The notes below the pieces were generated by a model. That model worked only from the letters and a program-made list of their open reading frames with translations. It did no database searches and was not told the origin of the DNA. 64,000 bases of DNA from an uncultured delta proteobacterium (GTDB taxonomy: Bacteria > Desulfobacterota > Desulfobacteria > Desulfobacterales > Desulfosarcinaceae), in the NCBI GenBank assembly GCA_963705475.1, contig CAVPJS010000030.1:147684-211683 (forward strand), read 5' to 3'. Positions within the stretch are counted from its first letter, which is position 1; each line of letters opens with the position of its first letter. Made by a program: the position numbers and the translations under genes. Below, piece by piece: positions 1 to 40,362 of this stretch.

Positions 1-149
1 CTTACCCCGAGGACACCGCCGTCGACAATGGAAACGGTGTCGGGGAAGGAATAGCGGCGCTCCAGCTCCTCAACGACCCTGACACCGAAGCCCTCATCGG
101 AGAATAGAAGATTACCGACACCCAGGATCATGATATGGTCATTCGCCAT
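1..149 (-). CDS. [NiFe] hydrogenase maturation endopeptidase (HybD/HyaD family), N-terminal fragment; gene runs off the left edge of the window
   Basis: Reverse translation from ATG at 149-147 gives MANDHIMILGVGNLLFSDEGFGVRVVEELERRYSFPDTVSIVDGGVLGV. This is the typical GxGN..xDEGxG N-terminus of hydrogenase maturation proteases. It is absent from the ORF track because it is truncated. Confidence 0.7.
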   Translation of the reverse strand, partial: MANDHIMILGVGNLLFSDEGFGVRVVEELERRYSFPDTVSIVDGGVLGV

Positions 150-969: not shown

Positions 970-2928
970 ATGAACCGTTCTTACATGGGAAAGGTACTGT
1001 GGGTTGACCTGACCACCGGTCGCATCACCATCGAAACCATCCCCGATGACCTGTACGATCGTTTTTTATCCGGCACGGGTTTGGCCGCATGGCTGCTTTA
1101 CCGGCGGATTCCGGCCGGAACGGATCCCCTGGGGCCGGACAATATCCTGGGTTTCGTGTCCGGAATTTTGACCGCCAGCGGCTCCCTGTTCACCGGCCGG
1201 TGGATGGTGGTTGGCAAAAGCCCGCTCACCGGCACCTGGGGCGATGCCAACTGCGGGGGCAACCTGGCACCGGCCATCAAAGGGTGCGGGGTCGACGGCA
1301 TTTTTTTCACCGGCCAGAGCAACCGGCCGGTTTACCTGTATGCCGACACCAAAGGGGCCGAATTGCGTGATGCCTCCCGCCTGTGGGGCCGGGATGCCGT
1401 CGACACAGAACGTCTGCTGGTGGAGGAACACGGCAGCAGACAGCGGGTCCGGGTTGCCTGCATCGGCATGGCCGGGGAGCGTCGTTCGCTGATATCCGGC
1501 ATCGTGAACCACGGCGGCCGGCTGGCCGCCCGCAGCGGGTTGGGGGCCGTCATGGGAGCCAAGCGGCTCAAGGCCGTTGTCCTGTGCGGCGCCCATCGCG
1601 TCCAGGTTCACGACCGCAAGGCCATGAAAACCCTGAGCCTGGAATGCAACAACCATGTGGCCTTTCAGCCGCCCTTTTTGAACGGTACCATGACCGCTTA
1701 CCTGGGCGCGCTCATGCGTGTGCTGCCCGCCCAGATGGAGCTCGACGGCATGCTCTACAAGATCATGTTGCGCAAATGGGGCACCGTCAACCAGAACCAG
1801 ATGGCCATCGAAATGGGCGATGCCCCGGTGATGAACTGGAAAGGTTCCAACCGGGATTTCGGATTGGACAAATCCAAGCTCATCGATCCCGACGAATTCA
1901 CCAAACCGGTGGTGGCCAAATACTTCTGCTACGCCTGTCCACTGGGCTGCGGCGGCATCAGCCTGGCACCGGACGGCAAGACCGAGGTGCACCGGCCCGA
2001 ATATGAATCGACCATCGCGCTTGGCGGACTGTGCCTCAACGAAGATGCCGACAGCATTTACTATCTCAACGAACTGCTGAACCGCGCCGGCATGGACACG
2101 ATCTCCGTGGGCGGCACGGTGGCCTTTGCCATCGAGTGCTTTGAAAAGGGGCTGTTGACCGCCACCGACACGGACGGATTGAAGTTGACCTGGGGCAACA
2201 CCGAGGCCATCGTCCACCTGGTTGAAAAGATGGTCGAACGGGAGGGCATCGGCGACCTGCTGGCCGATGGCGCCCACCGCGCGGCCCAGAAAATCGGCCG
2301 CGGTGCCGAAACCATGGCCATCCACGCAGGCGGGCAGGAACTGGGCATGCATGACGGCCGCTACGATCCCGGGTTCGCCCTCCACAACGTGGTCGAACCC
2401 ACCCCTGGCCGCCACACCATCGGGGCCTATATGTATTACGAAATGTTCCAGCTCTGGCAGGTCATACCGGATTTACCCGATCCCTCCCTGTTTTACCCGA
2501 AGCGCAGCAAGTACCGGGCAAACCGGGAAAAGGCCCTCATGGGGACCGCCTGCAGCCAGTACATGAACGTGGTCAACGGTGCCGGCTGCTGCCTATTCGG
2601 CGCCTTCATGGGAGCCCATCGGATTCCGCTGTTTGACTGGCTCAATGCCGCCACCGGCTGGGATCAATCGCCGGAAGCCTACCTGGTCGTCGGCCATCGG
2701 ATTCAGGCCGTCAAACAATTATTCAACATCAAACAGGGTGTCAACCCCACCGATATCCGCCTCAGCCGACGGGTCATCGGCGACCCGCCCCAGTCGGAAG
2801 GGGCCAATAAAGGCGCGACGGTCCCTTTGGAGAAACTGCGACGATACTACTGGTCTGCCATGGGCTTCGACCCGGAAACCGGCGTACCGACGCCGGAATG
2901 TCTGGCCCGTTTGAATTTGAAGATATGA
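970..2928 (+). CDS. aor: Tungsten-containing aldehyde:ferredoxin oxidoreductase (AOR family)
   Basis: 652 aa. The N-terminus MGKVLWVDLTTGRI...GTGLAAWLLY...GPDNILGFVSGILT...GKSPLTG and the overall length are typical of the AOR family. Confidence 0.9.
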   Translation: MNRSYMGKVLWVDLTTGRITIETIPDDLYDRFLSGTGLAAWLLYRRIPAGTDPLGPDNILGFVSGILTASGSLFTGRWMVVGKSPLTGTWGDANCGGNLAPAIKGCGVDGIFFTGQSNRPVYLYADTKGAELRDASRLWGRDAVDTERLLVEEHGSRQRVRVACIGMAGERRSLISGIVNHGGRLAARSGLGAVMGAKRLKAVVLCGAHRVQVHDRKAMKTLSLECNNHVAFQPPFLNGTMTAYLGALMRVLPAQMELDGMLYKIMLRKWGTVNQNQMAIEMGDAPVMNWKGSNRDFGLDKSKLIDPDEFTKPVVAKYFCYACPLGCGGISLAPDGKTEVHRPEYESTIALGGLCLNEDADSIYYLNELLNRAGMDTISVGGTVAFAIECFEKGLLTATDTDGLKLTWGNTEAIVHLVEKMVEREGIGDLLADGAHRAAQKIGRGAETMAIHAGGQELGMHDGRYDPGFALHNVVEPTPGRHTIGAYMYYEMFQLWQVIPDLPDPSLFYPKRSKYRANREKALMGTACSQYMNVVNGAGCCLFGAFMGAHRIPLFDWLNAATGWDQSPEAYLVVGHRIQAVKQLFNIKQGVNPTDIRLSRRVIGDPPQSEGANKGATVPLEKLRRYYWSAMGFDPETGVPTPECLARLNLKI

Positions 2929-2976
2929 TTGACCGGCACGCCCGCAAGGGCGCGGCCAACACGCCGAGGTTATCCC

Positions 2977-3438
2977 ATGGCTTACGCGATTACCCATGAA
3001 TGTGTCGGATGCAGTGTATGCATGCGTGTCTGCCCGGTGGATGCCATCGTGGGCAAGCCCAGGGAGCGCCATCGCATTATCCCTGACATCTGCATTGACT
3101 GCGGGGCCTGCGGCCGGATTTGCCCCTACACCAGCGTCAAGGACCCGGAGGGTCGGCTGTGCGAGCGGATCCGCATCCGCTCACGCTGGCCCAGGCCGGG
3201 GTTCGACGAAAAGCGCTGTTTGGGGTGCACCATCTGTGTAGAGGCCTGCCCCACGGGCTGCATCGATTTGAAAGCGGATCGGGGGTCCCGGGAAACCGTG
3301 CGTTATCCGGTGTTAAAAAAAGTGCGCAATTGTATCGGATGCGCCTTTTGTATGCAGGAGTGTCCGGTGGACGCGGTGAGGATGGAAGCAGCCGACGGGC
3401 TAGCTGGCATGGGCAAGCCCCTTCCCGGATCCAATTGA
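2977..3438 (+). CDS. Polyferredoxin with four CxxCxxCxxxCP 4Fe-4S motifs
   Basis: ORF 2929..3438 trimmed to MAYAITHECVGCSVCMRVCP. Four Cys clusters are present. It lies directly downstream of aor. Confidence 0.8.
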   Translation: MAYAITHECVGCSVCMRVCPVDAIVGKPRERHRIIPDICIDCGACGRICPYTSVKDPEGRLCERIRIRSRWPRPGFDEKRCLGCTICVEACPTGCIDLKADRGSRETVRYPVLKKVRNCIGCAFCMQECPVDAVRMEAADGLAGMGKPLPGSN

Positions 3439-3450
3439 TCCGGGAAGGGG
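3418..3450. terminator. Perfect 14-bp stem hairpin between convergent genes (no U-tract)
   Basis: CCCCTTCCCGGATC-caatt-GATCCGGGAAGGGG. It overlaps the ferredoxin stop codon and lies 12 nt from the hydrogenase large-subunit stop. Confidence 0.5.
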
Positions 3451-3461
3451 GCAGTTAGCGA

Positions 3462-5111
3462 CTAAATCACCTTGAATTTGTAAACCTGATTGGAATCCGG
3501 GTCGATCACGTGGACGCCGCAGGCCACGCACGGGTCGAAGGAGTGGACGGTGCGCAGCACTTCCAGGGGCTGTTTGGCATCGGCCACCGGGGTACCGATG
3601 AGCGCCTCTTCCACCGGACCGAGTTTGCCCTTGTCGTCACGCGGACCGAAGTTCCAGGTTGACGGCACCACATACTGGTAGTTTTTAATCTTGCCGCCTT
3701 CGATGTTAATCCAGTGTCCCAATGATCCACGGGGTACGTCGTTGAGACCCAGGCCCATCGCTTCGTCGGGCATTTCCCAGGGTGTGTAGGTCTGGGTGTC
3801 GCCGCCCTTGATGTTTTCCAGCAATTCCATGATCCAGCCGGGCATGGCCTGGCCGATGGCGATGGTCTCCAGTCCTCTGGCCGCGGTCCGGCCGAGGGTG
3901 GAAAACAGCGCAGCGGCGGGGATGTCCAGCTTCTGGAGCGTGGCGTCCACCAGCGGTTTGATTTCCTTGTGGCCTTTGCCGTAAGCGACCAGCACACGCG
4001 CCAATGGGCCCACTTCGCACGGCTCGCCTTCATATCTGGGCGCCTTGAACCAGGAGTATTTCCCGGCGTCAGGGCGGTACTTGGGATCTTCCTGAAGGGG
4101 CTTGGTCTCGCCCTTGTAGGGATGCAGGGCGGCGCCGTCCTCATACCAGGCGCGGGACACATTCTCGGCCACCTTCTCCTGAATGGCCATGGGGATATTG
4201 GCCAAGTCCCGTTTGCTGATCAGGCCGCGAGGCATGAACAGGCTTTCCGGCTCATTCTCCCCTTCGGGGAACTCGCCCCAGGCCAGGAAATTGGTGGTGC
4301 CACCGATGGCGCCCCAATCCTTGTAGAAGGAGGCAACGGCCACCAGGTCCGGAATGTAGACGTTATCGATGAACTCTTGGGTCTCCTTCTGCAGGTAGAG
4401 GAACTCGGCGATGCGGTCCGGATTGAGGTCGGCCACGCTGGTAATGCCGCCCACCACCAAAAACTGCGGGTGGGGGTTTTTGCCGCCGAAGACGGCGTGC
4501 ATGCGGGCAGCTCTGGCCTGCATCCGGAGGGCTTCGATATAGTGGGCACAGGCCATCAGGTTGGCTTCCGGTGGCAGCTTGTAGGCCGGGTGGCCCCAGT
4601 AGGCGTTGGAAAAGGGTCCCAGCTGGCCGCTGTCCACGAAAGTCTGGATACGCTGCTGGACCTGCTTGTAATAGGGTGTGCCGCCCACTTTGGCGTTGCT
4701 GACGTTATCCGCGAGCGCAGCGGTTTTCTTGGGATCGGCCTTCAGGGCGCTGACAATGTCCACCCAGTCCAGCGCGTGGAGGTGATAAAAGTGGACCAGA
4801 TGGTCGTGTTGGAACTGGGCGGCATGCATCATGTTCCGGATCAGTCTGGCATTTTTGGGAATCTGGACATTCACGGCGGCTTCGACTGCCCTCACCGAGG
4901 ACAGAGCATGGGTGTACGTTCAGACGCCGCAGGATCGGGCGACGAAATGATGTGCATCGCGCGGGTCGCGCCCCTGAAGAATCAGCTCGATGCCGCGGAA
5001 CAATTGGCCTGAACTCCACGCGTTGACGACTTTTCCCCCGGCCACTTCCACTTCGATGCGGAGGTGACCCTCGATTCTGGTAATTGGATCCACTACGACT
5101 CGTTTACCCAT
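3462..5111 (-). CDS. Periplasmic [NiFe] hydrogenase large subunit with one in-frame TGA (4922..4920) at the second Cys of the RxCGxC motif; probable selenocysteine readthrough
   Basis: ORFs 4920..5111 and 3462..4895 are in the same frame (1650 nt = 550 codons). Joined sequence: [23 protein letters not shown]...ARSCGV[TGA][13 protein letters not shown]...[27 protein letters not shown]. It is collinear with Desulfovibrio-type large subunits. Confidence 0.85.
4886..4904 (-). other. Candidate bacterial SECIS-like hairpin downstream of the in-frame TGA
   Basis: Minus strand: CUGUCCUC-GGU-GAGGGCAG, an 8-bp stem including one G-U pair. The stem starts 15 nt after the UGA. The apical loop contains GGU. 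Confidence 0.45.
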
Positions 5112-7435: not shown

Positions 7436-7521
7436 GGAGGGATGGCCGAGTGGTTTAAGGCGGCGGTCTTGAAAACCGTTGAGCGAAAGCTCCGTGGGTT
7501 CGAATCCTACTCCCTCCGCCA
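7436..7521 (+). tRNA. tRNA-Ser (anticodon UGA)
   Basis: Acceptor GGAGGGA/TCCCTCC, anticodon loop CUUGAAA, long variable arm, T-loop GGTTCGAATCC, encoded CCA. Confidence 0.9.
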
Positions 7522-7541
7522 GACCCGAAAAGCTTGACCCT

Positions 7542-7634
7542 GGAGAGATGGCCGAGCCGGCTGAAGGCGCTCGCCTGCTAAGCGAGTGTGTGGTGAAAGC
7601 TGCACCGAGGGTTCGAATCCCTCTCTCTCCGCCA
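7542..7634 (+). tRNA. tRNA-Ser (anticodon GCU)
   Basis: Acceptor GGAGAGA/TCTCTCC, anticodon loop CUGCUAA, long variable arm, T-loop GGTTCGAATCC, encoded CCA. Confidence 0.9.
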
Positions 7635-16971: not shown

Positions 16972-17370
16972 GAATGGATTCCTGACGGCTGATAGATTTG
17001 AACGGGTCAGCCGATGCGGTATGGTCAGGTTGATGGTTGCCGTCATCCGGCAATGACGAATGCCGTCGGGCACACGCCATTTTCGATAAAGTCCAGTTCA
17101 TAAAGAGTTTTCCGATCCAAGTCAAGAAGGTTCCCCCCGGGCTGAAGGATGCTCGTGTGGGGTGTTTTTTCAAGCCAAAACCCATGGCGATGTCCCATGG
17201 TGGATCCGGGCAGTGTTGAGACGGCATCCTGTCCGCCGTTTGATGGCGGCCGTGCCGGATTTGGCCTTTTCCCTTGCATATCCATAATTTCCAACGTATT
17301 TAATTGACCTGCTGAACACGGCAACACAATCGGTTGGGTTCCGGAACGACCAAAAAGGCTTGTCATCATT

Positions 17371-18414
17371 ATGAATGTGAGTATCTGCAAGCAGCGGCAG
17401 AAGCTTGCCGTTGATGTTGATGCGGTGTGCCGTCTCATCGCTGACACCCAGCTTCCCTCCGGTGAAATCCCCTGGTCTGCGGGAGGCAAGACCGACCCCT
17501 GGGATCATGTGGAGGCGGCCATGGGGCTGACGGTGGGGGGATATCTGGAGGAGGCCCGCAAGGCGTTTTCTTGGCTTTGCAGCATGCAACTGGCCGACGG
17601 CAGCTGGTTCGCCGCCTATCGCCGGGGCGTTCCCGAGGACCGGACCCGCGAAACCAACATGAGCGCATACATCGCCGTGGGGGTATTGCATTACTGGCTG
17701 ATCACCGGTGACCGCCATTTTCTCGAGTCCATGTGGGACACCGTCAGGCGAGCCATTGACTTTGCCGTCCGCCATCAGCGTGCCAACGGAGAGATCTGCT
17801 GGGCGATCAGCCCCCAGGGCAAGGTGGACCCCATGGCCCTGCTCACTGGATCCAGCTCCATCTACATGAGTCTGAAATGCGCCATGGCCATTGCCGACGA
17901 ACTGGGCTTGGCCGTCATCCCCTGGGCCGCTGCATATCGGCGTCTCGGTGAGGCGATCTGCCATCGACCATACCTGTTCAACATGACCAAATCCCGTTTT
18001 TCCATGGATTGGTTCTACCCGGTGCTGTGCGGTGCCGTTACCGGAGAAATGGCCGGTGGACGCATCAAGCGACAGTGGAAGAAATACGTGGTGGAAGGCC
18101 TGGGGGTTCGCTGCGTCTCCGACCAACCCTGGGTGACGGTCGCCGAAAGTTCCGAATTGGTACTGACCCTGTCGGCCATGGGAGATGCGGAAAAAGCGCT
18201 CATCATCTTCAATTGGCTGTCGGAACACGTATTTGATGACGGCTCCTTCTGGTGCGGATTCACCTTTCCGGACATGACCCGGTGGCCCGAAGAAAAAATC
18301 ACCTGGACCAATGCGGTGGTGCTGTTGGCTGCCGATGCGCTGTTCAACCTTACCCCCGGCGGACGGTTGTTCAGCCATGCCTGGTGGGCCGACGAAGCCG
18401 GACGCCCCGGTTGA
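17371..18414 (+). CDS. Hypothetical protein, possibly a prenyltransferase/squalene-cyclase-like alpha/alpha-toroid repeat protein
   Basis: 347 aa. It has repeated motifs such as QLPSGEIPWS, QLADGSWF and DDGSFW. Coding-like codon usage. Family assignment is tentative. Confidence 0.55.
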   Translation: MNVSICKQRQKLAVDVDAVCRLIADTQLPSGEIPWSAGGKTDPWDHVEAAMGLTVGGYLEEARKAFSWLCSMQLADGSWFAAYRRGVPEDRTRETNMSAYIAVGVLHYWLITGDRHFLESMWDTVRRAIDFAVRHQRANGEICWAISPQGKVDPMALLTGSSSIYMSLKCAMAIADELGLAVIPWAAAYRRLGEAICHRPYLFNMTKSRFSMDWFYPVLCGAVTGEMAGGRIKRQWKKYVVEGLGVRCVSDQPWVTVAESSELVLTLSAMGDAEKALIIFNWLSEHVFDDGSFWCGFTFPDMTRWPEEKITWTNAVVLLAADALFNLTPGGRLFSHAWWADEAGRPG

Positions 18415-18455
18415 CGGCCAGTTGCTCGGCACATGTATTGGGTTACGGATCCATC

Positions 18456-19175
18456 ATGATTAACGATCATCGCCCCTACGTAGTCAAAAAAGCATACCTG
18501 AAATTTCAGAGATTCTATGCCCGCCATTTTCTGGCCCCGCAACTCGAGCACCTGGGAAGAGGGTTCACCTTCATGCGGCCCTGGCATGTAGAACTGTTCG
18601 GTGCGCCGATCGCCATCGGACGATTCGCCACGGTCATCGCCACTCCGGACAAAAAAATCCGTCTGTCCGTATGGCCGGACCAAGCGGGCAAGGGCCACAT
18701 CACCATCGGCAACTACTGTCTGGTCTGCCCCGGCGTCAGGATCAGCAGCGCCGCCGGCATCACCATCGCCGACAACTGCATGATCGCCAACGGCGCCTAC
18801 CTAACCGATTCAGACTGGCACGGGATCTACGACCGCATCTCCTTTGGCAACGCCATGCCGGTGACCATCGAAAAAAATGCCTGGATCGGGGACAGTGCCA
18901 TCATTTGCAAAGGCGTGACCATCGGCGAGAACAGTATCGTGGGCGCCGGGGCCATCGTGGTGGACCCGGTTCCCGCCAACTGCGTGGCCGCCGGCAACCC
19001 GGCCCGCGTGGTCAAACAGCTGGACCCGGAAGAGTCCTTCACCACCCGCGCCGAATTTTACTCCGACCCCGCCAAACTCTCCCGGGAATTCATGGCCTGG
19101 GAGCAGGCCATGCTCAACGGCAACACCCTGTTTGGCTGGCTGCGCCACCTGCTGTTTCCCGCCAAAGGGGATTGA
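18456..19175 (+). CDS. Hexapeptide-repeat (left-handed beta-helix) acetyltransferase
   Basis: Trimmed to MINDHRPYVV. It has the hexapeptide region IGNYCLVCPGVRISSAAGITIADNCMIANGAYL...IGDSAIICKGVTIGENSIVGAGAIVV...AGNPARVV. Confidence 0.8.
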   Translation: MINDHRPYVVKKAYLKFQRFYARHFLAPQLEHLGRGFTFMRPWHVELFGAPIAIGRFATVIATPDKKIRLSVWPDQAGKGHITIGNYCLVCPGVRISSAAGITIADNCMIANGAYLTDSDWHGIYDRISFGNAMPVTIEKNAWIGDSAIICKGVTIGENSIVGAGAIVVDPVPANCVAAGNPARVVKQLDPEESFTTRAEFYSDPAKLSREFMAWEQAMLNGNTLFGWLRHLLFPAKGD

Positions 19176-19212
19176 AGCCAAATCGACTGACCGCCGACTT
19201 ATCTCATCCCGC

Positions 19213-19407
19213 TCAGGATGGCCCCCTGGGCACACCGGCAATGTGCGATCCCAATCCGGGACCGGCCATGAAGCCCTCCCGGTTGGTTTTCACCTCGATA
19301 TCCTTCCCCCTGCACCGGGGGCAGACAGGCGGAATGTCATCGCCTTTGAATGTCAGATGCGAAAATGGGTGGCCGCATGCGTTGCACCGGCACGCTGCTG
19401 TGGGCAT
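19213..19407 (-). CDS. Small zinc-ribbon protein (CxxC...CPxC)
   Basis: MPTAACRCNACGHPF...PPVCPRCRGKDIEV. It lies 22 nt downstream of the DsrE-like gene. Confidence 0.5.
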   Translation of the reverse strand: MPTAACRCNACGHPFSHLTFKGDDIPPVCPRCRGKDIEVKTNREGFMAGPGLGSHIAGVPRGPS

Positions 19408-19429
19408 GGTGATCGTCTCCGTTAATGGT

Positions 19430-19789
19430 CTACAGGCTGATAACCGCCGCGTCGCACGACATGTGGATCAGCTCGGCGGCCGTGGCCATTCGGGCACCGT
19501 CGATGAGCTCCTTCTCGTCGATATGGCGGGCTTTGGCGCAGGGTGTGCAGACCAGAATCGGTACCTCGTGAGCCTGAAGATAGGCGATGAGGTCGTCGGC
19601 CACATCCCCCGTCGCCGCCCGCAGGTGATCCGCAAGCCCTTGCTTGGCGATGTATACCCCTTCATCGAGCAGAAACAGTGTGGTTTGTTTGCCTTCCTTG
19701 TGGGCGATGGTGGCCAGATGGATCGCCCGGGTGGACCGGTTGGGGTTGTCGGTGCCGCAGGACAGGACAATGACGACGTGCGTTTTCAT
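19430..19789 (-). CDS. DsrE/DsrF-like sulfur-relay family protein
   Basis: Trimmed to MKTHVVIVLSCGTDNPNRSTRAIHLA, preceded by GGAG. Rossmann-like DsrE fold pattern with Cys in VCTPCAKAR. Confidence 0.7.
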   Translation of the reverse strand: MKTHVVIVLSCGTDNPNRSTRAIHLATIAHKEGKQTTLFLLDEGVYIAKQGLADHLRAATGDVADDLIAYLQAHEVPILVCTPCAKARHIDEKELIDGARMATAAELIHMSCDAAVISL

Positions 19790-19859
19790 GGTCGCTCCTT
19801 TTCTTTTTTGAGTGTGGACGTTGTTTGGTAAAGCCCCCGTGGCCGGCACTGGCGGAACC

Positions 19860-22863: not shown

Positions 22864-23310
22864 ATGAAAAAAGTACTGATCGCCTATGTCAGCCGGACGG
22901 GCAAGACCGAAGCCATGGCCAACTATATCGCCGAGGGTCTCCGAATCTGCGGACAGGAAGTCGACGTCAAGAAGATCGCAGCCATTGAAAATGAAAACGG
23001 CGTCGTCGGTTACGACGGCTATGTGTTCGGCTGCCCCACCTATCACAAGGACATCACCAGTGGAATGAAACAGTTCCTCTTCAAGGCCGAAAAAGCCAAC
23101 CTGACGGGCAAGATCGGCGGTGCTTTCGGTTCCCACACCCACAGCGGTGAGAGTGCACCCATGATCTTCGACACCATGCAGCACGTATTCAAGATGGACA
23201 TGACCGACCTGGGGCCCCTGAACCTCACGGAAGCCATGGTTGGCAGCGGCCAAGGATTGAAGGCCTGCCAGGATTACGGCAAGGCGCTGGGCGAAAAACT
23301 CGGCGCATAA
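22864..23310 (+). CDS. Flavodoxin
   Basis: 148 aa starting MKKVLIAYVSRTGKTEAMA (FMN phosphate-binding T/S-x-T-G-x-T). AAGGAGG RBS. Confidence 0.85.
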   Translation: MKKVLIAYVSRTGKTEAMANYIAEGLRICGQEVDVKKIAAIENENGVVGYDGYVFGCPTYHKDITSGMKQFLFKAEKANLTGKIGGAFGSHTHSGESAPMIFDTMQHVFKMDMTDLGPLNLTEAMVGSGQGLKACQDYGKALGEKLGA

Positions 23311-23397
23311 ACCGGTCGACCGCAGCAGCGGCCGGTCGCCGGTTGATGCCGTGACCGGCCGCTTGGGCGTGGGAAAACGATTTTAGGAGGACGCCGG

Positions 23398-25377
23398 GTG
23401 AAGGATCGGATTGGCGTATTCATCTGCGAGTGCGGACCGAATATCCAGAATGCCATGGACATCCCGCAGCTGGTGCGCTTTGCCGGACAGTTGGAGGCCG
23501 TCGTGCTTGCCGAGCCGGTCGGAATGCTGTGCACGACGGATGGTCGAAAACGAACGGCCGACACCATACGACACAGCCACATCACCCATGTCGTGTTCGC
23601 CGGCTGCTCACCCCGTGAACACGAACAGACCTTTCGGCGCGTGCTCGAAGACGCCGGATGCAACCCGTTCATGATGCAGGCCGTCAACCTGCGGGAGCAG
23701 TGCGCCTGGGTGATCCATGACCGCGATCAGGCCACCCGCAAGGCCAAAGGGCTGATTCGCGCAGCGGTGCAGCGCGTAAGACATCACACCCCGATCACGA
23801 TCAGAGAGATCGACTGCCGGCCCGATGTTCTCGTGATTGGCGCCGGTGTAGCCGGCATCAGTGCGGCGCGCACCCTCAGTCAGCACGGCCGGCGGGTATT
23901 TTTGGTGGAGCGTTCCACATGCGTTGGCGGCATGGCAGCCCTGTATGAAGACCTCTACCCGGATTTCACCTGCGCCGCCTGTCTGATCGAGCCGGATCTT
24001 GACGACCTCCTTCATGACGAGCGGATCGAGGTGATGACCGCGAGCGAGGTGCTGTCGGTTCGTGGCATCCCCGGCAACTTCACGATCACGGTGAAACAGG
24101 CGGCCCGCCATGTCGATCCCCACCGGTGCATCGGCTGCGCGGCCTGCATCGAGGCTTGCCCGGTCACGGTCCCCAATGCGTTCAATGCCCGCATGGACAC
24201 CCGGCATGCGGTCTACATTCCCTACCCTGGCGCCCTGCCGCATGTAGCAGCAATCGACAAATCGAACTGCCTGCACTTCAAGGGGGAAACGTGCCGGGCG
24301 TGCAAGGACGCCTGCCCGTTTGACGCCGTCGACTATGCGGCCGTCGAGACCGTGCGCAACCTTGAGGTGGGGGCAGTGGTGGTCGCCACCGGTTTTAAGG
24401 GGTTCGATCCCAGCCGCAGCGCCCGGTACGGCTTCGGCGCGGCGGATGGCGTCATCACCGCATTCGCCTTTGAGCGGCTGGTGAATACCACCGGTCCCAC
24501 CGGCGGTAAAATCATGACGACCGGCGGCCAAGCACCGGATACGGTGGCGTTCGTGCACTGCGTCGGCTCACGCACCGGGGCGTTCAACCGATTCTGTTCC
24601 GGTGTCTGCTGCCTGTATGCATTCAAGCAGGCCCAACAGGTCAGAAAACAACTGCCCGAGGCCGCCATTCATCATTTCTATGCCGATCTCTGTCTACCCG
24701 GCAAGAACGCCCAGCGTTTTTTCGACCAGGTCCGCGCAATGGCCGGTGTGAGCCTGCACCGGATCGCTCACCCCGACGCCATTCAAATCGGTACCGAAAA
24801 CGGCCGGACAATCGTTCGGGGCACCGATGCGTCGGGGGCCGTTCAGCAGGTTGACGCCCAGTTGGTTGTCCTGGCCACGGCCATGGAAGCCCCCGCAGAC
24901 ACGCCGCAGATGGATCGGGTCCTCGAGATCGGGTTAGACGATGACGGCTTTTTCAAAGAAGCCCACGCCGTTGTTGATTCGGTGGCTGCGGCCCGGGAGG
25001 GATTTTACCTCGCCGGCTGCTGCCAGGGGCCCAAAGACATCGCCGCCTCCGTGGGCCAGGGCCAGGCGGCCGCCGGCAGGATTTTGCAGAAATTGATTCC
25101 CGGCGGGAAAATTGCCTTGAACCCCATCGTTGCCCGGGTGGATCCGGATCTTTGCTCCGGGTGCCGGACCTGCGAGGCCCTCTGCCCCTTCGGGGCCCTG
25201 GCCAGGAATGAAAGAGATGCCTGCATGACCATCGAAGAGACATTGTGCCGTGGCTGCGGGATCTGTGCCGCCGCCTGTCCTAGCAGTGCCATACGTGTAT
25301 CGCATTATTCCGCTGACGCCGTTTACGCGGAGATCGACGGCCTGTTGAAACCCAATGCGGAAATTGACAGGCCATGA
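23398..25377 (+). CDS. hdrA: Heterodisulfide reductase subunit A-like flavoprotein (HdrA)
   Basis: GTG start 7 nt after AGGAGG. FAD motif VLVIGAGVAGISAA. Also VHCVGSR, plus two CxxCxxCxxxCP ferredoxin motifs and N-terminal Cys. Confidence 0.9.
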   Translation: MKDRIGVFICECGPNIQNAMDIPQLVRFAGQLEAVVLAEPVGMLCTTDGRKRTADTIRHSHITHVVFAGCSPREHEQTFRRVLEDAGCNPFMMQAVNLREQCAWVIHDRDQATRKAKGLIRAAVQRVRHHTPITIREIDCRPDVLVIGAGVAGISAARTLSQHGRRVFLVERSTCVGGMAALYEDLYPDFTCAACLIEPDLDDLLHDERIEVMTASEVLSVRGIPGNFTITVKQAARHVDPHRCIGCAACIEACPVTVPNAFNARMDTRHAVYIPYPGALPHVAAIDKSNCLHFKGETCRACKDACPFDAVDYAAVETVRNLEVGAVVVATGFKGFDPSRSARYGFGAADGVITAFAFERLVNTTGPTGGKIMTTGGQAPDTVAFVHCVGSRTGAFNRFCSGVCCLYAFKQAQQVRKQLPEAAIHHFYADLCLPGKNAQRFFDQVRAMAGVSLHRIAHPDAIQIGTENGRTIVRGTDASGAVQQVDAQLVVLATAMEAPADTPQMDRVLEIGLDDDGFFKEAHAVVDSVAAAREGFYLAGCCQGPKDIAASVGQGQAAAGRILQKLIPGGKIALNPIVARVDPDLCSGCRTCEALCPFGALARNERDACMTIEETLCRGCGICAAACPSSAIRVSHYSADAVYAEIDGLLKPNAEIDRP

Positions 25378-25799
25378 CCGCCTTTGAGCCCAAGATCCTT
25401 GCCCTGCTGTGCAACTGGTGCGCTTACGATGGTGCCGATGCGGCCGGCAGGGCCCGGCTTGCGCTGCCGACGCAGGTTCGCGAAGTCCGCGTCATGTGCA
25501 GCGGCCAGGTCAGCCCCGCTATGGTCCTCAAGGCCTATGAAACCGGGGCGGACGGCGTGATCGTGATGGGCTGCCAACCCGGGGATTGCCACTACAAGGA
25601 AGGCAACTTCCACGCCCTGAAACGCATCGTGCTGCTGCGTTCGGTGCTCAAGACCACGGCAATCCACCCGCAGCGGCTGCAGGTGAACTGGGTTTCCGCC
25701 GGGCAGGGACACCGCTATGCCCGGGTGGTCAATGACATGGTAAGAACGATCCGGGCACTGGGGCCATTAGCCGCCGGCCATTCCCCGGACGGATGCTGA
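25374..25799 (+). CDS. mvhD: Methyl-viologen-reducing hydrogenase delta subunit (MvhD/FlpD)
   Basis: KILALLCNWCAYDGADAAG...VMCSGQVSP...GADGVIVMGCQPGDCHY. ATGA overlap with hdrA. Confidence 0.9.
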   Translation: MTAFEPKILALLCNWCAYDGADAAGRARLALPTQVREVRVMCSGQVSPAMVLKAYETGADGVIVMGCQPGDCHYKEGNFHALKRIVLLRSVLKTTAIHPQRLQVNWVSAGQGHRYARVVNDMVRTIRALGPLAAGHSPDGC

Positions 25800-26756
25800 A
25801 TGGAAAATAGACCGAAAATCGCCCTGTATTGGTGCGCGGGTTGCGGTGGCTGTGAAGAGTCGGTCATCGACCTGGCCGAAGAACTGCTGGCCGTTGCTGA
25901 AAAAGCGGAGATCGTCTTCTGGCCCGTTGCCCTGGATGCCCGTTATCGCGATGTGGCAGCCATGGCTGATGCTGAAATTGACGTGACGTTCATCAACGGC
26001 GCCATTCGCCTGGACGACCATGTTCGCATGGTGCGGCTGCTGCGCAGGAAATCCAAGCGCCTCATCGCCCACGGCAGCTGTGCTCACATGGGCGGGGTGA
26101 TCGGCCTGGCCAACCGCTTCACCGCCCGGCAACTGCTGGAATGCGCCTACCGGCAGGCACCCAGTATGGCGGACTCCTCAGGGGCGCTTCCCGGTGGCGC
26201 TGAAGTAGAGCCCCCATTGCCAGAACTGCTGCCGTCGGTGAGGGCCCTCGATCAGGTGGTAAAAGTGGATGCGATCATTCCGGGGTGCCCGCCGCCACCG
26301 GCGACCATGGCACGGGTGATCGATGCGGCCATCCACGGGCGGCTGCCGGCGGAGAAAACCGTCTTTGCCCATCGCAAGACCCTTTGCCATGAGTGCCCGC
26401 GCCTGGATTCCAGACCGGAAAAAATCGAAATTACCCGCTTCAAGCGGCTTCACCAAACCCGTTGGGATCCGGATGTATGCTTTTTACCCCAGGGGCTGAT
26501 CTGCCTGGGACCGGTTACGCGGGGCGGCTGTGAATCCCGGTGCATCGGCGCCAACATGCCCTGCCGGGGCTGTTTTGGCCCCACGGAGCGGGTGGATGAC
26601 TTCGGCGCCGCTGCCGTTGCCTGTATTGCCGCCATGCTGGGTGGAGCGGACGAAGCTGCGCTGGCGCAAGTGGTGGACAGCATCGCCGATCCCGCCGGCT
26701 TGTTCTACCGATATTGCCTGGCCACATCGGTTCTCGGCAAAGGGCGGACCCCATGA
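25800..26756 (+). CDS. mvhG: F420-non-reducing [NiFe] hydrogenase small subunit (MvhG-like)
   Basis: IALYWCAGCGGCEESVIDL at the N-terminus and C-terminal Cys clusters. No Tat signal. Confidence 0.85.
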   Translation: MENRPKIALYWCAGCGGCEESVIDLAEELLAVAEKAEIVFWPVALDARYRDVAAMADAEIDVTFINGAIRLDDHVRMVRLLRRKSKRLIAHGSCAHMGGVIGLANRFTARQLLECAYRQAPSMADSSGALPGGAEVEPPLPELLPSVRALDQVVKVDAIIPGCPPPPATMARVIDAAIHGRLPAEKTVFAHRKTLCHECPRLDSRPEKIEITRFKRLHQTRWDPDVCFLPQGLICLGPVTRGGCESRCIGANMPCRGCFGPTERVDDFGAAAVACIAAMLGGADEAALAQVVDSIADPAGLFYRYCLATSVLGKGRTP

Positions 26757-28138
26757 CCCGCCGCATCCTCATCGATCCGATAACCCGATTGGAAGGGCAC
26801 GGCCGCATCGATATTCGTCTGGATGATGCCGGCAATGTCGCACGTGCTTTTTTCCAGGTGCCTGACTTCAAGGGGTTTGAGAAGTTCTGCGAGGGGCGTG
26901 CCGCAGAAGAGTTGCCGACACTGACACAAAAGATCTGCGGGGTATGCCCCACGGCGCATCACATCGCCTCCGCCAAGGCGCTGGACGACCTGTTCGGCGT
27001 GTCACCCCCGCCGGCGGCCCTGATAATCCGTGAACTGATGCACACGGCATTCGTCCTCGAGGACCACCTGCTGCATTTTTTCTATCTTGGCGGGCCCGAC
27101 ATCCTGGTGGACGGTGACGTTCACAACGCCAGGCACGATGTATTCGGCGTCCTGCAGGTGCTGGGAGGGGCGCTTGGCAGGCGTGCGATCCAGATTCGCA
27201 AAAAAGTCCGGGCGCTGAATGGCCTGGTGAGCGGCAGCGCCCTGTACCCGGTCAACGGGCTTCCCGGCGGGGTGTCAAAGCCGGTCGCCGAAAGGGCCCG
27301 AACGACCATCGCCGAGACCGCAGCGGAAGCACTGGTGTTCGCCCGTCAGGTGTTGGCCCTGTTCCACCAGAAGGTACTGAAGCAGAAAAGATTCACCGAC
27401 ATGGCCCGAAGCGGGATCTTCTCTTTACGAACTTACTACATGGGCCTTGTTGACAAGGATTGCCGGGTCAATTTTTATGATGGCAAGCTCCGGATCGTCA
27501 CCCCTCAGGGCGGCACCTTCGCCCACTTTTCCGCCGATGCCTATTTGGACCACTTGCAGGAGCGGACAGCCCGGCGCAGTTATATGAAAATTCTCTACCT
27601 GAAGACCGTGGGGTGGAAGGGCTATGCGGCGGGCATGGACAACGGGTTATACCGGGTGGGCCCGCTGGCACGGCTCAATGCCGCGCTCGGCATGGCGACC
27701 CCCCTGGCCCAGCGCGAATATGAACGGTTGTATGATGCCGTCGGCCAAAAACCGGCCCACAACACCATGCTCTATCACTGGGCCCGCTTAATTGAGGTGC
27801 TCTACGCCGCCGAACGCATGGTGGAACTGGCCCACAGCCGCGAGCTCACCGACGCGCATGTGCGCAATTTACCCACCCGGCCCCCCACTTCTGGCGTCGG
27901 GGTCTGTGAAGCCCCCCGCGGAACCCTGATCCACCACTACCAGACCGATGCCCAGGCCATCGTGAAACGGCTCAATCTGCTGGTGGCCACCCAGAACAAT
28001 GCGGGCGCCATTTGTCTTTCCGTGGAAAAAGCGGCCCGCGCACTTATTAAAAGGGGTCACGTAACCGATAATCAATTGCACCAGGTGGAAATGGCCTACC
28101 GGGCCTACGACCCATGCCTGGCCTGTGCCACCCACTGA
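26753..28138 (+). CDS. mvhA: F420-non-reducing [NiFe] hydrogenase large subunit (MvhA-like); ends at the His of DPCxxCxxH
   Basis: Trimmed to MTRRILIDPITRLEGHGRI (ATGA overlap with mvhG). N-terminal QKICGVCPTAHH. C-terminal YDPCLACATH followed directly by the stop. Confidence 0.9.
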   Translation: MTRRILIDPITRLEGHGRIDIRLDDAGNVARAFFQVPDFKGFEKFCEGRAAEELPTLTQKICGVCPTAHHIASAKALDDLFGVSPPPAALIIRELMHTAFVLEDHLLHFFYLGGPDILVDGDVHNARHDVFGVLQVLGGALGRRAIQIRKKVRALNGLVSGSALYPVNGLPGGVSKPVAERARTTIAETAAEALVFARQVLALFHQKVLKQKRFTDMARSGIFSLRTYYMGLVDKDCRVNFYDGKLRIVTPQGGTFAHFSADAYLDHLQERTARRSYMKILYLKTVGWKGYAAGMDNGLYRVGPLARLNAALGMATPLAQREYERLYDAVGQKPAHNTMLYHWARLIEVLYAAERMVELAHSRELTDAHVRNLPTRPPTSGVGVCEAPRGTLIHHYQTDAQAIVKRLNLLVATQNNAGAICLSVEKAARALIKRGHVTDNQLHQVEMAYRAYDPCLACATH

Positions 28139-28584: not shown

Positions 28585-31174
28585 ATGAACGACAAAATCA
28601 AGTGCGACCTTTTTTTTAACTGCAGGGAAGCTGGTTGTCCGGCCTACGAATCGGAAGAAACGCGATGCTGGCTGATTGACGACACCCGTTGCCGGGGTGC
28701 CGTACAGGACAATTTTCTGACCAAAGTGGACCTGTGCCTCAAGTGCCCGGTGTTCAAGAACAATATGGACCCGGACGCCATGGAGGCCTCCTGCGCCATG
28801 ATATCCCGCCAATTCACGGAAGCTCGCAAGGCACTGGATGCGCGGGACCGGCAACTGGAGTCGGTCAGCATGGAGATGGCCATCGGCCTCTCCGAAACCT
28901 TCGATGCCCTGAAAAAAATTGCCGCCGGTGATCCCCTGGTGCAGCTCGATGAACGCTCCAGTCTCGAATTGATCGTCAAACTCAAACAGATGGTCAACCG
29001 GACCGCCAGGCATATGGGTGATATGGTTGATATGACTCATGAATTTGCCATAGGATTGGCCGAGCATTTCGATGTTCTGCACCGGGTCGGCGCCGGTGAT
29101 CTGGATGCCCGCGTCCACGGGGAATCGGCGGTCGAGCTGCTGGAATCCCTCAAGACCATCACCAACCGGATGATCGTCAGCGTAAAGGAGGAGATCGATC
29201 ACCGCCATCGGGTCACGCAGGACCTCAAGACCAGCGAGGAGTGCTTTCGTACCTTCGCGGAAAACGCACCCATCGGCATTACCATCATGAACCCCGACCT
29301 TACCTTCTCTTATATCAATCCAACGTTTACCGACATGTTCGGATACACGCTCGCAGACATTCCGGACAAACCGACCTGGTTCAATAAGGCCTACCCGGAC
29401 CCGGCCTACCGGAAGCGGATGGTTGCAATATGGGAATCCTATGGAAGCGAGGCCGGCAGGATCGGCGAAGTCAGGCCGATCACCTTAGAGGTGCGCTGCA
29501 AGAACGGATTGAGTAAAGTCATCAGCTTCCGGACCGTGATCATGGAAAATGGCAGGCATTTCGTCACCTATGCGGACATCACCCGCCAGGCTCGGGCGCA
29601 GGAGGTCCTCAAGGAATCAGAGGAGAAGTACCGCACGCTCATCGACAACATCCAAGATGGTGTGATCCTCATCGAGGAGGACCGATTTCTTTTTGTCAAT
29701 GAGGCCATGGCACGAATAACCGGCTATACTGTCGCCGAGTTGATCGGCATTGAATTTCAGCGTGGTCATTGCCCCGGAAGATGTTCAAATGGTTGTCGAT
29801 CGCTATCGCCGGCACCGGACGGGAGAGGACGTGAAGCGCAGCTACGAATGTCGCCTGCTGCACAAGGATGGGAAAACCCGCCTGATCGCCAGCATCCACG
29901 TCGGAATCATCAACTACCAGAACCGGGTGGTGACCATCGGCACCGTCAAGGACATCACGGACCGAAAAATAGCCGCAGAGGAACGGCGCAAAATGGCCGA
30001 GCGGCTGCAGCGGTCAAAAAAAATGGAAGCCATCGGCGCCCTGGCCGGTGGTGTCGCCCACGATCTGAACAACATCCTTTCCGGCATCGTGAGTTATCCG
30101 GAGCTGCTGCTCATGGATCTGCCTGACGACAGCCCGCTGAAGGAACCCATTTTAACGATCCAAAAATCCGGAGAACGGGCGGCGGCCATCGTCAATGATC
30201 TGCTGACCCTCGCTCGACGCGGAGTGGCCAATATGGTGGCCGTCGATTTCAATCAAACCGTGACCGACTATCTGGAAAGTCCAGAATTCTCAAAACTGGC
30301 CTCCTTTCATCCCCGAATGACCGTTGAGCGCCGACTTTCCGAGGACCTGCTCTATGTCCTTGGGTCGCCGGTCCATCTGTCCAAAACAATAATGAACCTG
30401 GTTTCCAACGCCGCCGAAGCCATGCCGGAAGGCGGACAGATAACCATATCCACGGAGAACCGGTATGTGGAACGGCGCCTCAAAGGGTATGATGAAGTCA
30501 TTGAAGGCGAGTACGCCACCCTGACGGTGGCAGATACCGGCGTGGGAATGTCGCCCAGCGACATCGAACAGATCTTCGAGCCCTTTTATACCAAAAAAGT
30601 CATGGGCAGAAGCGGCACGGGTCTGGGAATGGCCGTGGTGTGGGGTACGGTCAAGGATCACAAGGGTTACATCGACTTGAAAAGCGCCGAAGGGAGGGGA
30701 ACCTCGGTAACGCTTTACTTCCCAATTACCAGGAAGCATTTGCCTGAACGCGCTGAAACGTCTTCCATCGACGCCATCCTGGGCGACGGCCAAACGATTC
30801 TGGTGGTGGACGACATGCCGGAACAGCGCAGGATTGTCTCCGCCATGCTGAACCGGTTGGGGTATACCGTTGCCGCTGTTCCCAGCGGGGAGGCCGCGGT
30901 GGACTATCTCAAAAACCATCCAGTGGATCTCATGGTCCTTGACATGATCATGGCCCCGGGCATGGACGGCCTGGAAACGTACCAGAGGGTATCGACGTTC
31001 AAGCCAGGGCAGAGAGCCATTGTTGCCAGCGGCTTCTCTGAAAACGATCGGGTGAAATCCCTGCAGCGGCTGGGGGTCGACGAATATCTGAAGAAACCGT
31101 ACACGCTAGAAAAAATCGGCTTGGCGATCAAGAGAACCCTCGCCGACATCCGGCCCGCTTCTAACGTGCGCTGA
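28585..31174 (+). pseudogene. Cytoplasmic hybrid sensor histidine kinase (Cys-rich N-domain, two HAMP-like repeats, two PAS, HisKA-HATPase, receiver), frame broken by a 1-nt indel at about 29746-29752
   Basis: ORF 28585..30126 loses homology after ...TGYTVAELIG. ORF 29750..31174 continues the same PAS domain in the +1 frame (LNFSVVIAPEDVQMVVDRYRRHRTGEDV...). One extra base (A at 29749) separates the frames. Confidence 0.8.
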
Positions 31175-36449: not shown

Positions 36450-37278
36450 TTACCAGCACTTTTCCGCTTTTGGGTAGCTCCCCAGCAGCTTGACAAACAG
36501 GGCGTGCAGGGTCAGTTCACCGATGGCCGATTTGACCTCGTCCGCGTCGATGCCCGGCTTCGAATGCCGCATAGAAAACATACTCCCATGGATTTTCCGG
36601 TATGGGCCGCGACTCCAGCTTGGTGAGGTTGAGGCTGTATTTTTGAAAAATCTTCAGACAGTCCACCAGGGCGCCGGGATAGTGGCGGGTTTTGAATGCC
36701 ACGGTGGTTTTGCCCGTTTTATGGCCAACCGGCACGTTCTCCTTGTTGGCAATGACGAAAAACCGGGTGGTGTTGGAGCTGTTGGTCTGAATGTCCCGCT
36801 CCAGGATCTCCATATCGTAAATCTCGGCGCACAGCGCCGAGGCGATGGCGGCACAGTCCAGGCGATCGCCGGCGGCCACGGCCTGGGCTGCACCGGCGGT
36901 ATCATAAGCGGGCACCATTTTAATGTTTTTCGATTTCAGGAACGCCTTGCACTGCTTGAGTGCGTGGGGGTGGGAAAGCGCCTCTTTGATCTCATCCAGG
37001 CGGGCGCCTTTTTTGGCCAGCAGGGTATGGCGGATGGGCAGATACACCTCGGCGATAACGAATATGTCATTGGCAAACAAAAGATCATAATTCTCTACCA
37101 CGGTGCCGGCGATGGAGTTTTCCACCGGAATGAATCCGTAGGTCGCCGCCCCGCTTTCCACCACATCGAACACGTCGTCGAAGGCATCGCAGCCGACAGT
37201 CTCCACCGCTTTTCCAAAATGTTCGTGGACGGCCATCTCACTGTAGGCGCCCCGGATTCCCTGAAATGCAACTTTCAT
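36450..37278 (-). pseudogene. Monofunctional prephenate dehydratase (PDT plus ACT), frame broken by one extra base in the GGG run at 36553-36555
   Basis: MKVAFQGIRGAYSEMA...ESRPIPENPWEYVFYAAFEAG, then an out-of-frame tail HRRGRGQIGHR*. The -1 frame continues as IDADEVKSAIGELTLHALFVKLLGSYPKAEKCW* (stop at 36452-36450), the expected ACT-domain end. 829 nt = 3n+1. Confidence 0.8.
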
Positions 37279-38006
37279 TGGCTGAGCCTTTCGTGTATGT
37301 CGGTCATGGCGTCGATAAACGCCTGGCGTTTTTGCTTGGCATAGGGGTTGTAGGTATGCATGTCCTCGAAAAGTTGCCATGTGTCGTGGCTGACCACCCC
37401 CAATATGTGCATGAGCCGCTTGTACCCCTCGGTGTCGATGTCCAGATCCCGGGCGCCGAAGGCCGACAGGGACCGGCCGATAAAATGGGTCAGGGAGAGG
37501 CTTACGGCAATCTTCTCGTCATGCTCCTGAGCCGAAGCCGTGATGACCACCAATCCCTGGCGCTCCAACCAGGTCCTGATTTTCTCATATCGACCACTCT
37601 CGATGCGATCCGGACAAAGGACGATTTTGCGGCCGGCCAGTGAGTTGGCCGCACTGTCCGGGCCGAACATGGGATGGGTGGGCAGGATGGAAACACTTGC
37701 CGGAAGCAGTTTGTGCATCCACTGCACCGGATAGACTTTTACCGAGCATACATCCACCACCAGGGCGTCTTCTCTGAGCAGCGGTGCCACGAGCCGCAGG
37801 GTGTCCTGCATGGCGGAAATGGGCATGCACAGGATCACGATCCCTTGACGGCAGGCCGATTCAAAGGCTACCGGCCGGGCGCCGCAGGCCCTGATGGCCT
37901 CATCCTTGTCGCTGCGGGTAAATACGGCGACGGAGAAATCTTTGGACAGGTACTGGGCGGCAAGCTTGCCGAAGCGACCGAAACCGATGATACCGATACT
38001 GCTCAT
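37275..38006 (-). CDS. tyrA: Prephenate (or arogenate) dehydrogenase
   Basis: IGIIGFGRFGKLAA NAD motif, THPMFGP, and ATGA overlap with the downstream PDT gene. Confidence 0.8.
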   Translation of the reverse strand: MSSIGIIGFGRFGKLAAQYLSKDFSVAVFTRSDKDEAIRACGARPVAFESACRQGIVILCMPISAMQDTLRLVAPLLREDALVVDVCSVKVYPVQWMHKLLPASVSILPTHPMFGPDSAANSLAGRKIVLCPDRIESGRYEKIRTWLERQGLVVITASAQEHDEKIAVSLSLTHFIGRSLSAFGARDLDIDTEGYKRLMHILGVVSHDTWQLFEDMHTYNPYAKQKRQAFIDAMTDIHERLSQ

Positions 38007-39133: not shown

Positions 39134-39160
39134 TCAATAGATCTCCACTTCCCTATTGTG

Positions 39161-40297: not shown

Positions 40298-40362
40298 GGT
40301 GCCTGTTCCTGTTTAAGAGGTTGATTTCATGTTGAACCCAAAACCAGCGCCGTCGTCCACGG

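Follow-up and report, generated by a model that had tools for sequence, protein, structure and literature searches.

We analyzed a stretch of 64,000 nt (referred to as the window) from contig CAVPJS010000030.1 of the assembly GCA_963705475.1, which belongs to an uncultured member of the Desulfosarcinaceae. On its minus strand the window carries the genes of a periplasmic [NiFe]-type hydrogenase, and the large-subunit gene is interrupted by one in-frame TGA that is predicted to encode selenocysteine (Sec). The features of the locus are listed in Table 1. Translation from 5111 to 3462 gives a single frame of 550 codons with the TGA at 4922..4920 as its sole internal stop, as the initial annotation had described it. 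The ATG at 5111 is preceded at a distance of 8 nt by the ribosome-binding site AGGGAGG, and the small-subunit gene, which is intact, lies directly upstream. The profile PF00374 (nickel-dependent hydrogenase) matches the 63-aa piece before the TGA at profile positions 1–25 (E=6.5e-8) and the 485-aa piece behind it at positions 27–508 (E=1.7e-200), so that one profile position is missing exactly at the TGA. Among the metal ligands in the motifs RSCGV[UGA]TYTH and DPCVACGVH, three are Cys and the fourth codon is a UGA at the Cys column; the C-terminal motif contains only Cys, in agreement with the earlier reading. If a nonsense change struck at random, it would hit a codon for any of the four Cys ligands with a probability of about 4/549, and the occurrence of the same TGA in 71 of 80 related genomes (see below) is much stronger evidence than this figure. 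It had also been claimed that the downstream part of the large subunit, the small subunit and the maturation protease are intact. This holds for the first two, whereas only the first 49 codons of the protease lie in the window. At the syntenic place of the closest related locus (L001, 10941–11477) we found a full 178-aa gene of the HycI family (PF01750, E=3.5e-32).

Table 1. Features of the hydrogenase locus and of the neighbouring redox genes in the window
Feature	Position	Strand	Description
Large subunit, Group 1b-like [NiFe(Se)] hydrogenase, periplasmic	3462..5111	-	549 residues and stop via one UGA; Pfam NiFeSe_Hases 1–25 and 27–508
In-frame UGA, predicted Sec codon, residue 64	4920..4922	-	Second ligand of N-terminal RxCGxC, Ni–Fe bridging position; aligned to Cys84 of 1H2A_L
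N-terminal active-site motif R-S-C61-G-V-U64-T-Y-T-H	4908..4937	-	Sequence and structure alignment
SECIS-like hairpin CUGUCCUC-GGU-GAGGGCAG	4886..4904	-	8-bp stem, 3-nt apical loop, G at loop positions 1 and 2; from folding
C-terminal active-site motif D-P-C528-V-A-C531-G-V-H534	3510..3536	-	All-Cys; no Sec at the classical [NiFeSe] position
15-residue C-terminal extension after His534	3465..3509	-	Alignment with solved chains
Small subunit, 334 aa	5145..6149	-	Twin-arginine signal SRRDFMK, no C-terminal membrane anchor; Oxidored_q6 and NiFe_hyd_SSU_C
GC-rich inverted repeat CCCCTTCCCGGATC-AATT-GATCCGGGAAGGGG	3419..3450	.	Between the convergent hydrogenase and ferredoxin genes; read from sequence
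Hydrogenase maturation endopeptidase, first 49 codons (MANDHIMILGVGNLLFSDEGFG...)	3..149	-	Rest beyond left window edge
Tungsten-type aldehyde:ferredoxin oxidoreductase	970-2928	+	Convergent to hydrogenase
Poly-ferredoxin	2929-3438	+	Convergent to hydrogenase
Flavodoxin	22864-23310	+	Cytoplasmic hydrogenase cluster
HdrA-like	23398-25377	+	Cytoplasmic hydrogenase cluster
MvhD	25374-25799	+	Cytoplasmic hydrogenase cluster
MvhG-like small subunit	25800-26756	+	Cytoplasmic hydrogenase cluster
Mvh-type large subunit	26714-28138	+	Cytoplasmic hydrogenase cluster

The position of the TGA within the active site was determined by alignment to the large subunit of the D. vulgaris Miyazaki F enzyme. Residues 5–108 of the window protein align to 1H2A_L without gaps, which places residue 64 opposite the second Cys of RTCGVCTYTHAL (residue 84). 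We take Cys84 and Cys549 of Miyazaki F (C79 and C579 in E. coli Hyd-1) to be the ligands that bridge Ni and Fe, and Cys81 and Cys546 to be the terminal Ni ligands. The same arrangement of bridging and terminal ligands has been described for Hyd-1 (PMC8020662). The assignment of the TGA to the second Cys of RxCGxC, a bridging ligand, is thus borne out by the gap-free alignment. At the other end of the protein, the mature chains 4U9H_L and 1UBH_L stop at the His aligned to His534 and the precursor-length chain 1H2A_L runs on; by analogy, the 15-residue extension would be the part that is cut off by the maturation endopeptidase.

The hydrogenase group was assigned by ranking the similarity to solved structures. 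For the large subunit the best solved relative is the Miyazaki F enzyme (1H2A/4U9H) with 728 bits, and the [NiFe] enzymes of D. gigas (2FRV) and D. fructosovorans (1YQW) reached 676–705 bits. Sorted by group, the scores were 676–728 bits for 1b, 641 bits for 1e (3MYR), 496–588 bits for 1d, 483–507 bits for 1c and about 330 bits for 1a, with the classical [NiFeSe] enzymes 1CC1, 2WPN and 5JSH aligning in two partial stretches (324–337 bits). The small subunit gave 340–415 bits with Group 1b structures compared to 180–207 bits with Group 1a structures, and its alignment to the 1H2A_S precursor (415 bits) reaches to within at most 2 residues of the C-terminus. Judged by this ranking, the enzyme is Group 1b-like and not a classical Group 1a [NiFeSe] hydrogenase.

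With the prototypical periplasmic [NiFe] hydrogenases of Desulfovibrio (HydDB Group 1b) it shares the architecture, a small subunit with Tat signal and without anchor, the motifs RxCGxC and DPCxxCxxH, the C-terminal extension and the conserved Glu of RIEGH, Asp of HDH and Arg of PRG. It differs from them in that the second N-terminal Cys (Cys84, bridging) is replaced by a UGA followed by a hairpin that resembles a selenocysteine insertion sequence (SECIS). The classical [NiFeSe] enzymes of Group 1a, from Desulfomicrobium baculatum (1CC1) and D. vulgaris Hildenborough (2WPN/5JSH), are likewise periplasmic enzymes of sulfate reducers with one Sec as Ni ligand, encoded by UGA and a SECIS. However, in these enzymes Sec stands at the head of the C-terminal DPUxxC and is a terminal Ni ligand, whereas the window enzyme has Cys there and its predicted Sec lies at the bridging position in the N-terminal motif. 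Both the all-Cys motif DPCVACGVH and the low Group 1a scores of the two subunits speak against membership in Group 1a. The UGA at the second N-terminal ligand, the SECIS-like hairpin downstream of it and the all-Cys C-terminal motif correspond to the N-terminal CXXU type.

The TGA column in related loci

Scanning one genome per GTDB species yielded 397 relatives, of which the best 80 loci (78–97% identity) were used; all of these belong to Desulfosarcina, Desulfosarcinaceae or other Desulfobacterales. At the column of residue 64 we observed TGA in 71 of the 80 loci and TGT or TGC in the remaining 9. The complete genes are otherwise uninterrupted, with 62–64 codons before the column and 483–487 codons after it, and the comparison of orthologues that had been proposed at the outset thus revealed a TGA/Cys column without gene decay. 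The sources of the TGA loci are long-read, MEGAHIT, SPAdes and JGI assemblies as well as one single-cell genome. This bears on the idea that a TGC or TGT in this window was turned into TGA by faulty sequencing or assembly. The assembly is indeed not free of errors, as at least one gene appears to be frameshifted (a PAS/histidine kinase at about 29.75–30.13 kb), but the same TGA is found in 71 independent genomes that passed through several sequencing and assembly pipelines, and the window contains the Sec-specific hairpin described below, which is absent from Cys genes. An error at this codon is therefore effectively refuted. The caution about assembly errors in the initial annotation is hence not applicable to the TGA, whereas its mention of indels elsewhere agrees with what we see in the histidine kinase gene.

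Next, we looked at the codons on both sides of the column. In the TGA set, codons -20 to -1 keep their amino acids while their third positions vary (0.6–1.9 bits), so the 63-codon N-terminal part is translated and under selection. Downstream codons outside the hairpin behave in the same way, with conserved amino acids and variable third positions, and purifying selection therefore acts on the protein sequence of both parts. These observations have to be weighed against a reading of the TGA as a true stop, by which the gene would be a pseudogene or would be split into a 63-aa peptide and a separately initiated protein of about 477 aa. Public gene callers annotate just such a split form: in a collection of 5.8 billion proteins, 91 of the 120 best homologue clusters are called at 455–485 aa, mostly at 472–478 aa, and a GTG that could serve as a restart is present at codon +9. 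However, in all 71 species the two parts are uninterrupted and show purifying selection. The 63-aa part holds both Cys61, the first Ni ligand, and the conserved glutamate of RIEGH, and for this reason it is not dispensable. The restarts chosen by gene callers vary by lineage (472, 474, 477, 478 and 485 aa), and the GTG at codon +9 has no Shine-Dalgarno sequence before it and lies inside the hairpin. Since a true stop would also leave the Sec-specific constraint on the hairpin unexplained, we regard it as very improbable.

The short public entries begin at various GTG, ATG or TTG codons downstream of the TGA, so that the first Ni-binding motif is missing from them. All 29 full-length database entries have Cys at residue 64, and none has U or X. 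As the public entries of the one kind start just after the TGA and the full-length ones are all Cys, the Sec forms are systematically mis-annotated.

TGA is the usual stop codon of 20 of the 36 annotated genes in the window, and recoding would therefore be specific to this site. The same count argues against an altered genetic code or a reading of the UGA by a near-cognate tRNA such as that for Trp or Arg, for which we found no specific support. Moreover, the homologous residue is always Cys and an obligatory metal ligand, and Trp or Arg would abolish the active site. We consider the probability of such a reading to be negligible.

A neighbour-joining tree, which was built without bootstrap and is indicative only, places the Cys forms at three separate positions nested among Sec clades: (i) the cultured Desulfosarcina clade (D. 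widdelii, D. variabilis, D. cetonica and relatives), the sister group of the Sec clade to which the window belongs; (ii) the pair of L037 and Desulfatitalea; and (iii) a sequence of Desulfatirhabdium in basal position. As the hairpin sequence is the same in all Sec clades, a single origin of Sec followed by several Sec-to-Cys reversions would be the simplest reading of the tree. None of the 71 TGA loci is from a cultured organism (all are from metagenome-assembled genomes or the single-cell genome), and the cultured isolates of the set, namely Desulfosarcina widdelii, D. variabilis and D. cetonica (L012, L013 and L018), all have Cys. This distribution may be the reason why no such enzyme has been purified so far.

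Four residues of the large subunit (T67, L70, F100 and G532) track the Sec state within the clade and were considered as an adaptation of the active site to Sec. This was rejected, as the Cys enzyme of Miyazaki F has T, L and G at the corresponding positions, several Cys homologues in the databases share these residues, and the codon of L70 is in addition part of the SECIS stem. A further observation concerns the loci L003 and L007, two whole Sec-type loci of 95–96% identity that lie head-to-head about 14.6 kb apart on the long-read contig CAVQUU010000028.1, each with its own tRNA-Ser pair (see below). The arrangement is a true inverted duplication, or else two strains were joined in a chimeric assembly.

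The hairpin downstream of the TGA and the decoding of the codon

The stem of the hairpin begins 15 nt past the UGA and its loop 23 nt past it; bSECISearch uses a spacing range of 16–37 nt. For bacterial SECIS elements a G at position 1 or 2 of the apical loop is the criterion (PMC13582414), and the loop GGU has it. The hairpin spans codons +6 to +12 (L-S-S-V-R-A-V). In 70 of the 71 TGA genes all 8 of 8 pairs can form, and the loop is likewise GGU in 70 of 71; the only common change in the stem is a C-G to U-G exchange in the basal pair (10 TGA genes), which is compatible with pairing. By comparison, just 1–5 of the 8 pairs form in the nine Cys genes. These encode essentially the same S-S-V-R-A-V peptide, but their codon choice is free: the third-position entropy of codons +6 to +11 is 0.00 bits in the TGA set versus 0.76–1.84 bits in the Cys set, and at flanking four-fold sites of the TGA set it is 1.2–1.9 bits. 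The Arg at +10 is encoded by AGG in all 71 TGA genes and mostly by CGN in the Cys genes. Judged from these alignments, a nucleotide constraint that is limited to the Sec genes is the expected signature of a bacterial SECIS.

Taken together, the TGA/Cys column, the hairpin found only in TGA genes, the intact and selected genes and the ordinary use of TGA as a stop elsewhere strongly support the recoding by Sec that the initial annotation had put forward. Comparing the related sequences, we conclude that the TGA at 4922..4920 is very probably a conserved Sec site with a SECIS in a Group 1b-type periplasmic hydrogenase, which would place Se at the Ni–Fe bridge. According to this reading, SelB and Sec-tRNA(Sec), recruited by the hairpin at 4904..4886 (15 nt downstream), would decode the UGA and the product would be a full-length large subunit of 549 residues in a soluble periplasmic Group 1b-type hydrogenase. 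After maturation, its N-terminal bridging ligand (CxxU, corresponding to Cys84 of Miyazaki F and C79 of Hyd-1) would be a selenolate instead of a thiolate, bridging Ni and Fe, while the remaining three ligands, including the one at the classical [NiFeSe] position, would stay Cys. The enzyme would presumably act in the periplasm as an H2-oxidizing partner of a soluble cytochrome c.

The same UGA and hairpin could also lead to the insertion of Cys. Here, a tRNA-ReC (SelC*-type) charged with Cys would be delivered by SelB, and the product would be an ordinary all-Cys [NiFe] enzyme. tRNA-ReC-like tRNAs do decode UGA as Cys given a SECIS (PMC13582414, citing Vargas-Rodriguez 2018) and are present in some Desulfobacterota genomes with N-terminal Sec-type hydrogenases (PMC13582414); insertion of Sec and of Cys are indistinguishable from sequence data alone. 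However, tRNA-ReC occurs mainly together with UXXU genes and in about 2.3% of other Sec-type genomes (PMC13582414), and neither the window nor the flanks of the related loci contained such a tRNA. That a costly UGA and SECIS should be kept in about 70 species just for Cys is, moreover, hard to square with the repeated TGA-to-TGY reversions in the tree. Insertion of Cys thus seems improbable to us, and decoding as Sec is preferred.

Several observations nevertheless weigh against Sec at this site. Neither the 64-kb window nor the sequences flanking 60 related loci yielded selA, selB, selD or tRNA-Sec (the search for selA, selB and selD covered about 50 annotated open reading frames (ORFs) of the window, that for tRNA-Sec the window and the 60 locus flanks). 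The stem is near-invariant and two-sided compensatory covariation is absent among the 71 TGA genes, so the support from the hairpin lies in the contrast of synonymous sites between Sec and Cys genes. No Rfam family was found for the hairpin at gathering or permissive thresholds, and the z-score of the single-sequence fold is only -2.46. As described above, TGA was seen in uncultured organisms only, the cultured Desulfosarcina having Cys; natural enzymes of this type are known from their sequences alone. Finally, the engineered C79U variant of Hyd-1 falls behind the native enzyme in both activity and O2 tolerance (PMC8020662), which leaves the selective advantage of a bridging Sec unexplained. 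The lone Rfam match that we obtained, an actinobacterial small RNA with E=9.9, was discarded as noise.

Genomic neighbourhood of the hydrogenase genes

No second selenoprotein gene was found in the window, where a scan for ORFs with TGA read-through gave just alternative-frame artefacts besides the hydrogenase. Two organisms lend indirect support to decoding as Sec. One of the TGA loci (L042) belongs to the Olavius Delta-1 symbiont, which is a heavy user of Sec and has SelD (PMC1976440). Desulfobacterium autotrophicum HRM2 possesses selABCD with tRNA-Sec and an annotated soluble periplasmic [Ni/Fe/Se] hydrogenase HysAB (PMC2702500). The neighbours of HysAB in HRM2 are the maturation protein HyaD2, a ferredoxin, an Fe/S protein, the tungsten enzyme Aor5, a histidine kinase and hdrA-mvhDGA (PMC2702500), a set that matches the one in the window (protease, ferredoxin, Aor, histidine kinase and hdrA-mvhDGA). 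The position of Sec in HRM2 HysA is stated neither in the paper nor in its supplement, and both the orthology and the position are deduced from synteny alone. The two loci differ in that HdrA1 and MvhA2/MvhD beside HysAB are selenoproteins in HRM2 (PMC2702500), whereas the counterparts in the window are all-Cys. These counterparts form a second, cytoplasmic hydrogenase cluster on the plus strand (22864–28138), in which the usual Sec positions are all Cys (ICGVCPTAHH and DPCLACATH).

Between the hydrogenase and its maturation protease lie the genes of the aldehyde:ferredoxin oxidoreductase and the poly-ferredoxin (970–3438). This layout is repeated at L001 (7708–10233), and the HysAB locus of HRM2 is described in the same way (Aor5, ferredoxin). 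The inverted repeat at 3419..3450 is probably a bidirectional terminator. About 1.3–2.5 kb upstream of the small-subunit gene we found a tRNA-Ser(UGA)/tRNA-Ser(GCU) pair (7436–7634, plus strand), neither of which is tRNA-Sec. The pair occurs at the same place in about 45 of the 60 related loci, including those of Cys-type Desulfosarcina isolates, and reflects conserved synteny only.

In the remainder of the window, the PAS/histidine-kinase/receiver protein at 28585–31174 (plus strand) is represented by two overlapping ORFs in different frames (28585–30126 and 29750–31174). The tail of the first one resembles out-of-frame sequence, and the split looks like a 1-nt indel near 29.75–30.1 kb. Three long ORFs had no Pfam or NCBIfam match, namely 31291–33609 (minus strand, 772 aa), 17170–18432 (minus strand, 420 aa) and 18671–19831 (plus strand, 386 aa). 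The minus strand from 36517 to 44271 carries a near-complete cluster for the biosynthesis of aromatic amino acids with genes for prephenate dehydratase, prephenate dehydrogenase, an aminotransferase, aroC, aroK/L, aroA, aroE and a chorismate mutase/prephenate dehydratase. Two ORFs, 36517–37380 and 37275–38006, overlap by about 100 nt, possibly owing to another indel or an over-extended start.

Predicted selenium at the bridging position: precedents and meaning

The initial annotation had regarded Sec at this position as undescribed, which does not hold. According to PMC13582414, an N-terminal CXXU with a predicted Ni–Fe bridge was reported by Baltazar et al. 2011 for two sequences of Group 1 and one of Group 3, and PMC13582414 (2026) itself adds 27 CXXU-type sequences of Group 4. 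Substitution of a bridging Cys is also mentioned, with ‘purported examples’, in PMC8020662 (2021), which cites the same 2011 review but names C579; the two secondary sources thus disagree on the bridging Cys that Baltazar 2011 had meant. Possibly relevant is also PMC1976440 (2007), where a new CxxU position of Sec was reported in a hydrogenase alpha subunit of Olavius symbionts, a possible orthologue of the window gene. In the portion of a 2026 review table of prokaryotic selenoprotein families considered here, only UxxC is given for hydrogenase alpha subunits. The N-terminal CXXU variants (Baltazar 2011; PMC13582414) agree with the window enzyme in the position of Sec, in the UGA and SECIS with a G in the apical loop, in the mosaic of Sec and Cys forms and in being deduced from sequence. 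The Group 1 CXXU sequences of Baltazar 2011 are known here by secondary citation and may or may not be orthologues of the window gene, while the Group 4 CXXU enzymes are membrane-bound energy-converting complexes (PMC13582414) and thus of another group than the window enzyme. As the bridging Sec position has already been predicted from sequence, the window enzyme is not a new kind of hydrogenase.

An engineered counterpart exists in the C79U variant of E. coli Hyd-1 (Evans et al. 2021, PMC8020662), in which Se replaces S at the homologous bridging position of a Group 1 enzyme, as is predicted for the window. The variant showed 13% of the native H2-oxidation activity, the best value of four Cys-to-Sec variants, together with a lower Michaelis constant (KM) for H2 and less tolerance to prolonged O2 exposure than the native enzyme (PMC8020662). 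Since it assembles and retains this activity, Se at the bridging position is chemically viable. However, the Sec of C79U was inserted artificially (UAG/EF-Tu) into an O2-tolerant Group 1d enzyme without an adapted protein environment, whereas the window enzyme is a natural one of the Group 1b type, and enzymes of the window type retain the bridging Sec across many species.

To our knowledge, all that is known about the mechanism of selenium in hydrogenases comes from enzymes with the C-terminal, terminal-ligand Sec, in which it has been linked to O2 tolerance and H2 production, and we know of no natural enzyme with Se bridging Ni and Fe that has been purified or studied. Such natural enzymes were still called ‘purported’ by Evans et al. 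2021 (PMC8020662). The locus described here and its approximately 70 orthologues provide strong comparative evidence that bridging-Se enzymes are real, expressed at full length and common among sulfate reducers of environmental importance, and the nested natural Cys revertants can serve as controls. Potentially new are their prevalence, with Sec as the majority state in the clade, the clean natural contrasts between Sec and Cys forms and the systematic truncation in databases. Owing to the split gene calls, hydrogenase surveys and metaproteomic databases hold these enzymes only as N-terminally truncated entries of 472–478 aa from which half of the active site is gone.

A wider proposal, which we offer tentatively and regard as doubtful at present, is that in uncultured Desulfosarcinaceae of the sea and of sediments, the symbionts of gutless worms among them, the bridging-Se enzyme would be no rare oddity but the standard periplasmic uptake hydrogenase. 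It would have arisen once and reverted to Cys several times, notably in the cultured Desulfosarcina lineage, with its sequences truncated in the databases, and it would have a catalytic property of its own, for example a higher affinity at nanomolar H2, unlike the effect of a terminal Sec. If this is true, a natural bridging selenolate would confer a distinct catalysis at which the engineered Hyd-1 C79U only hints.

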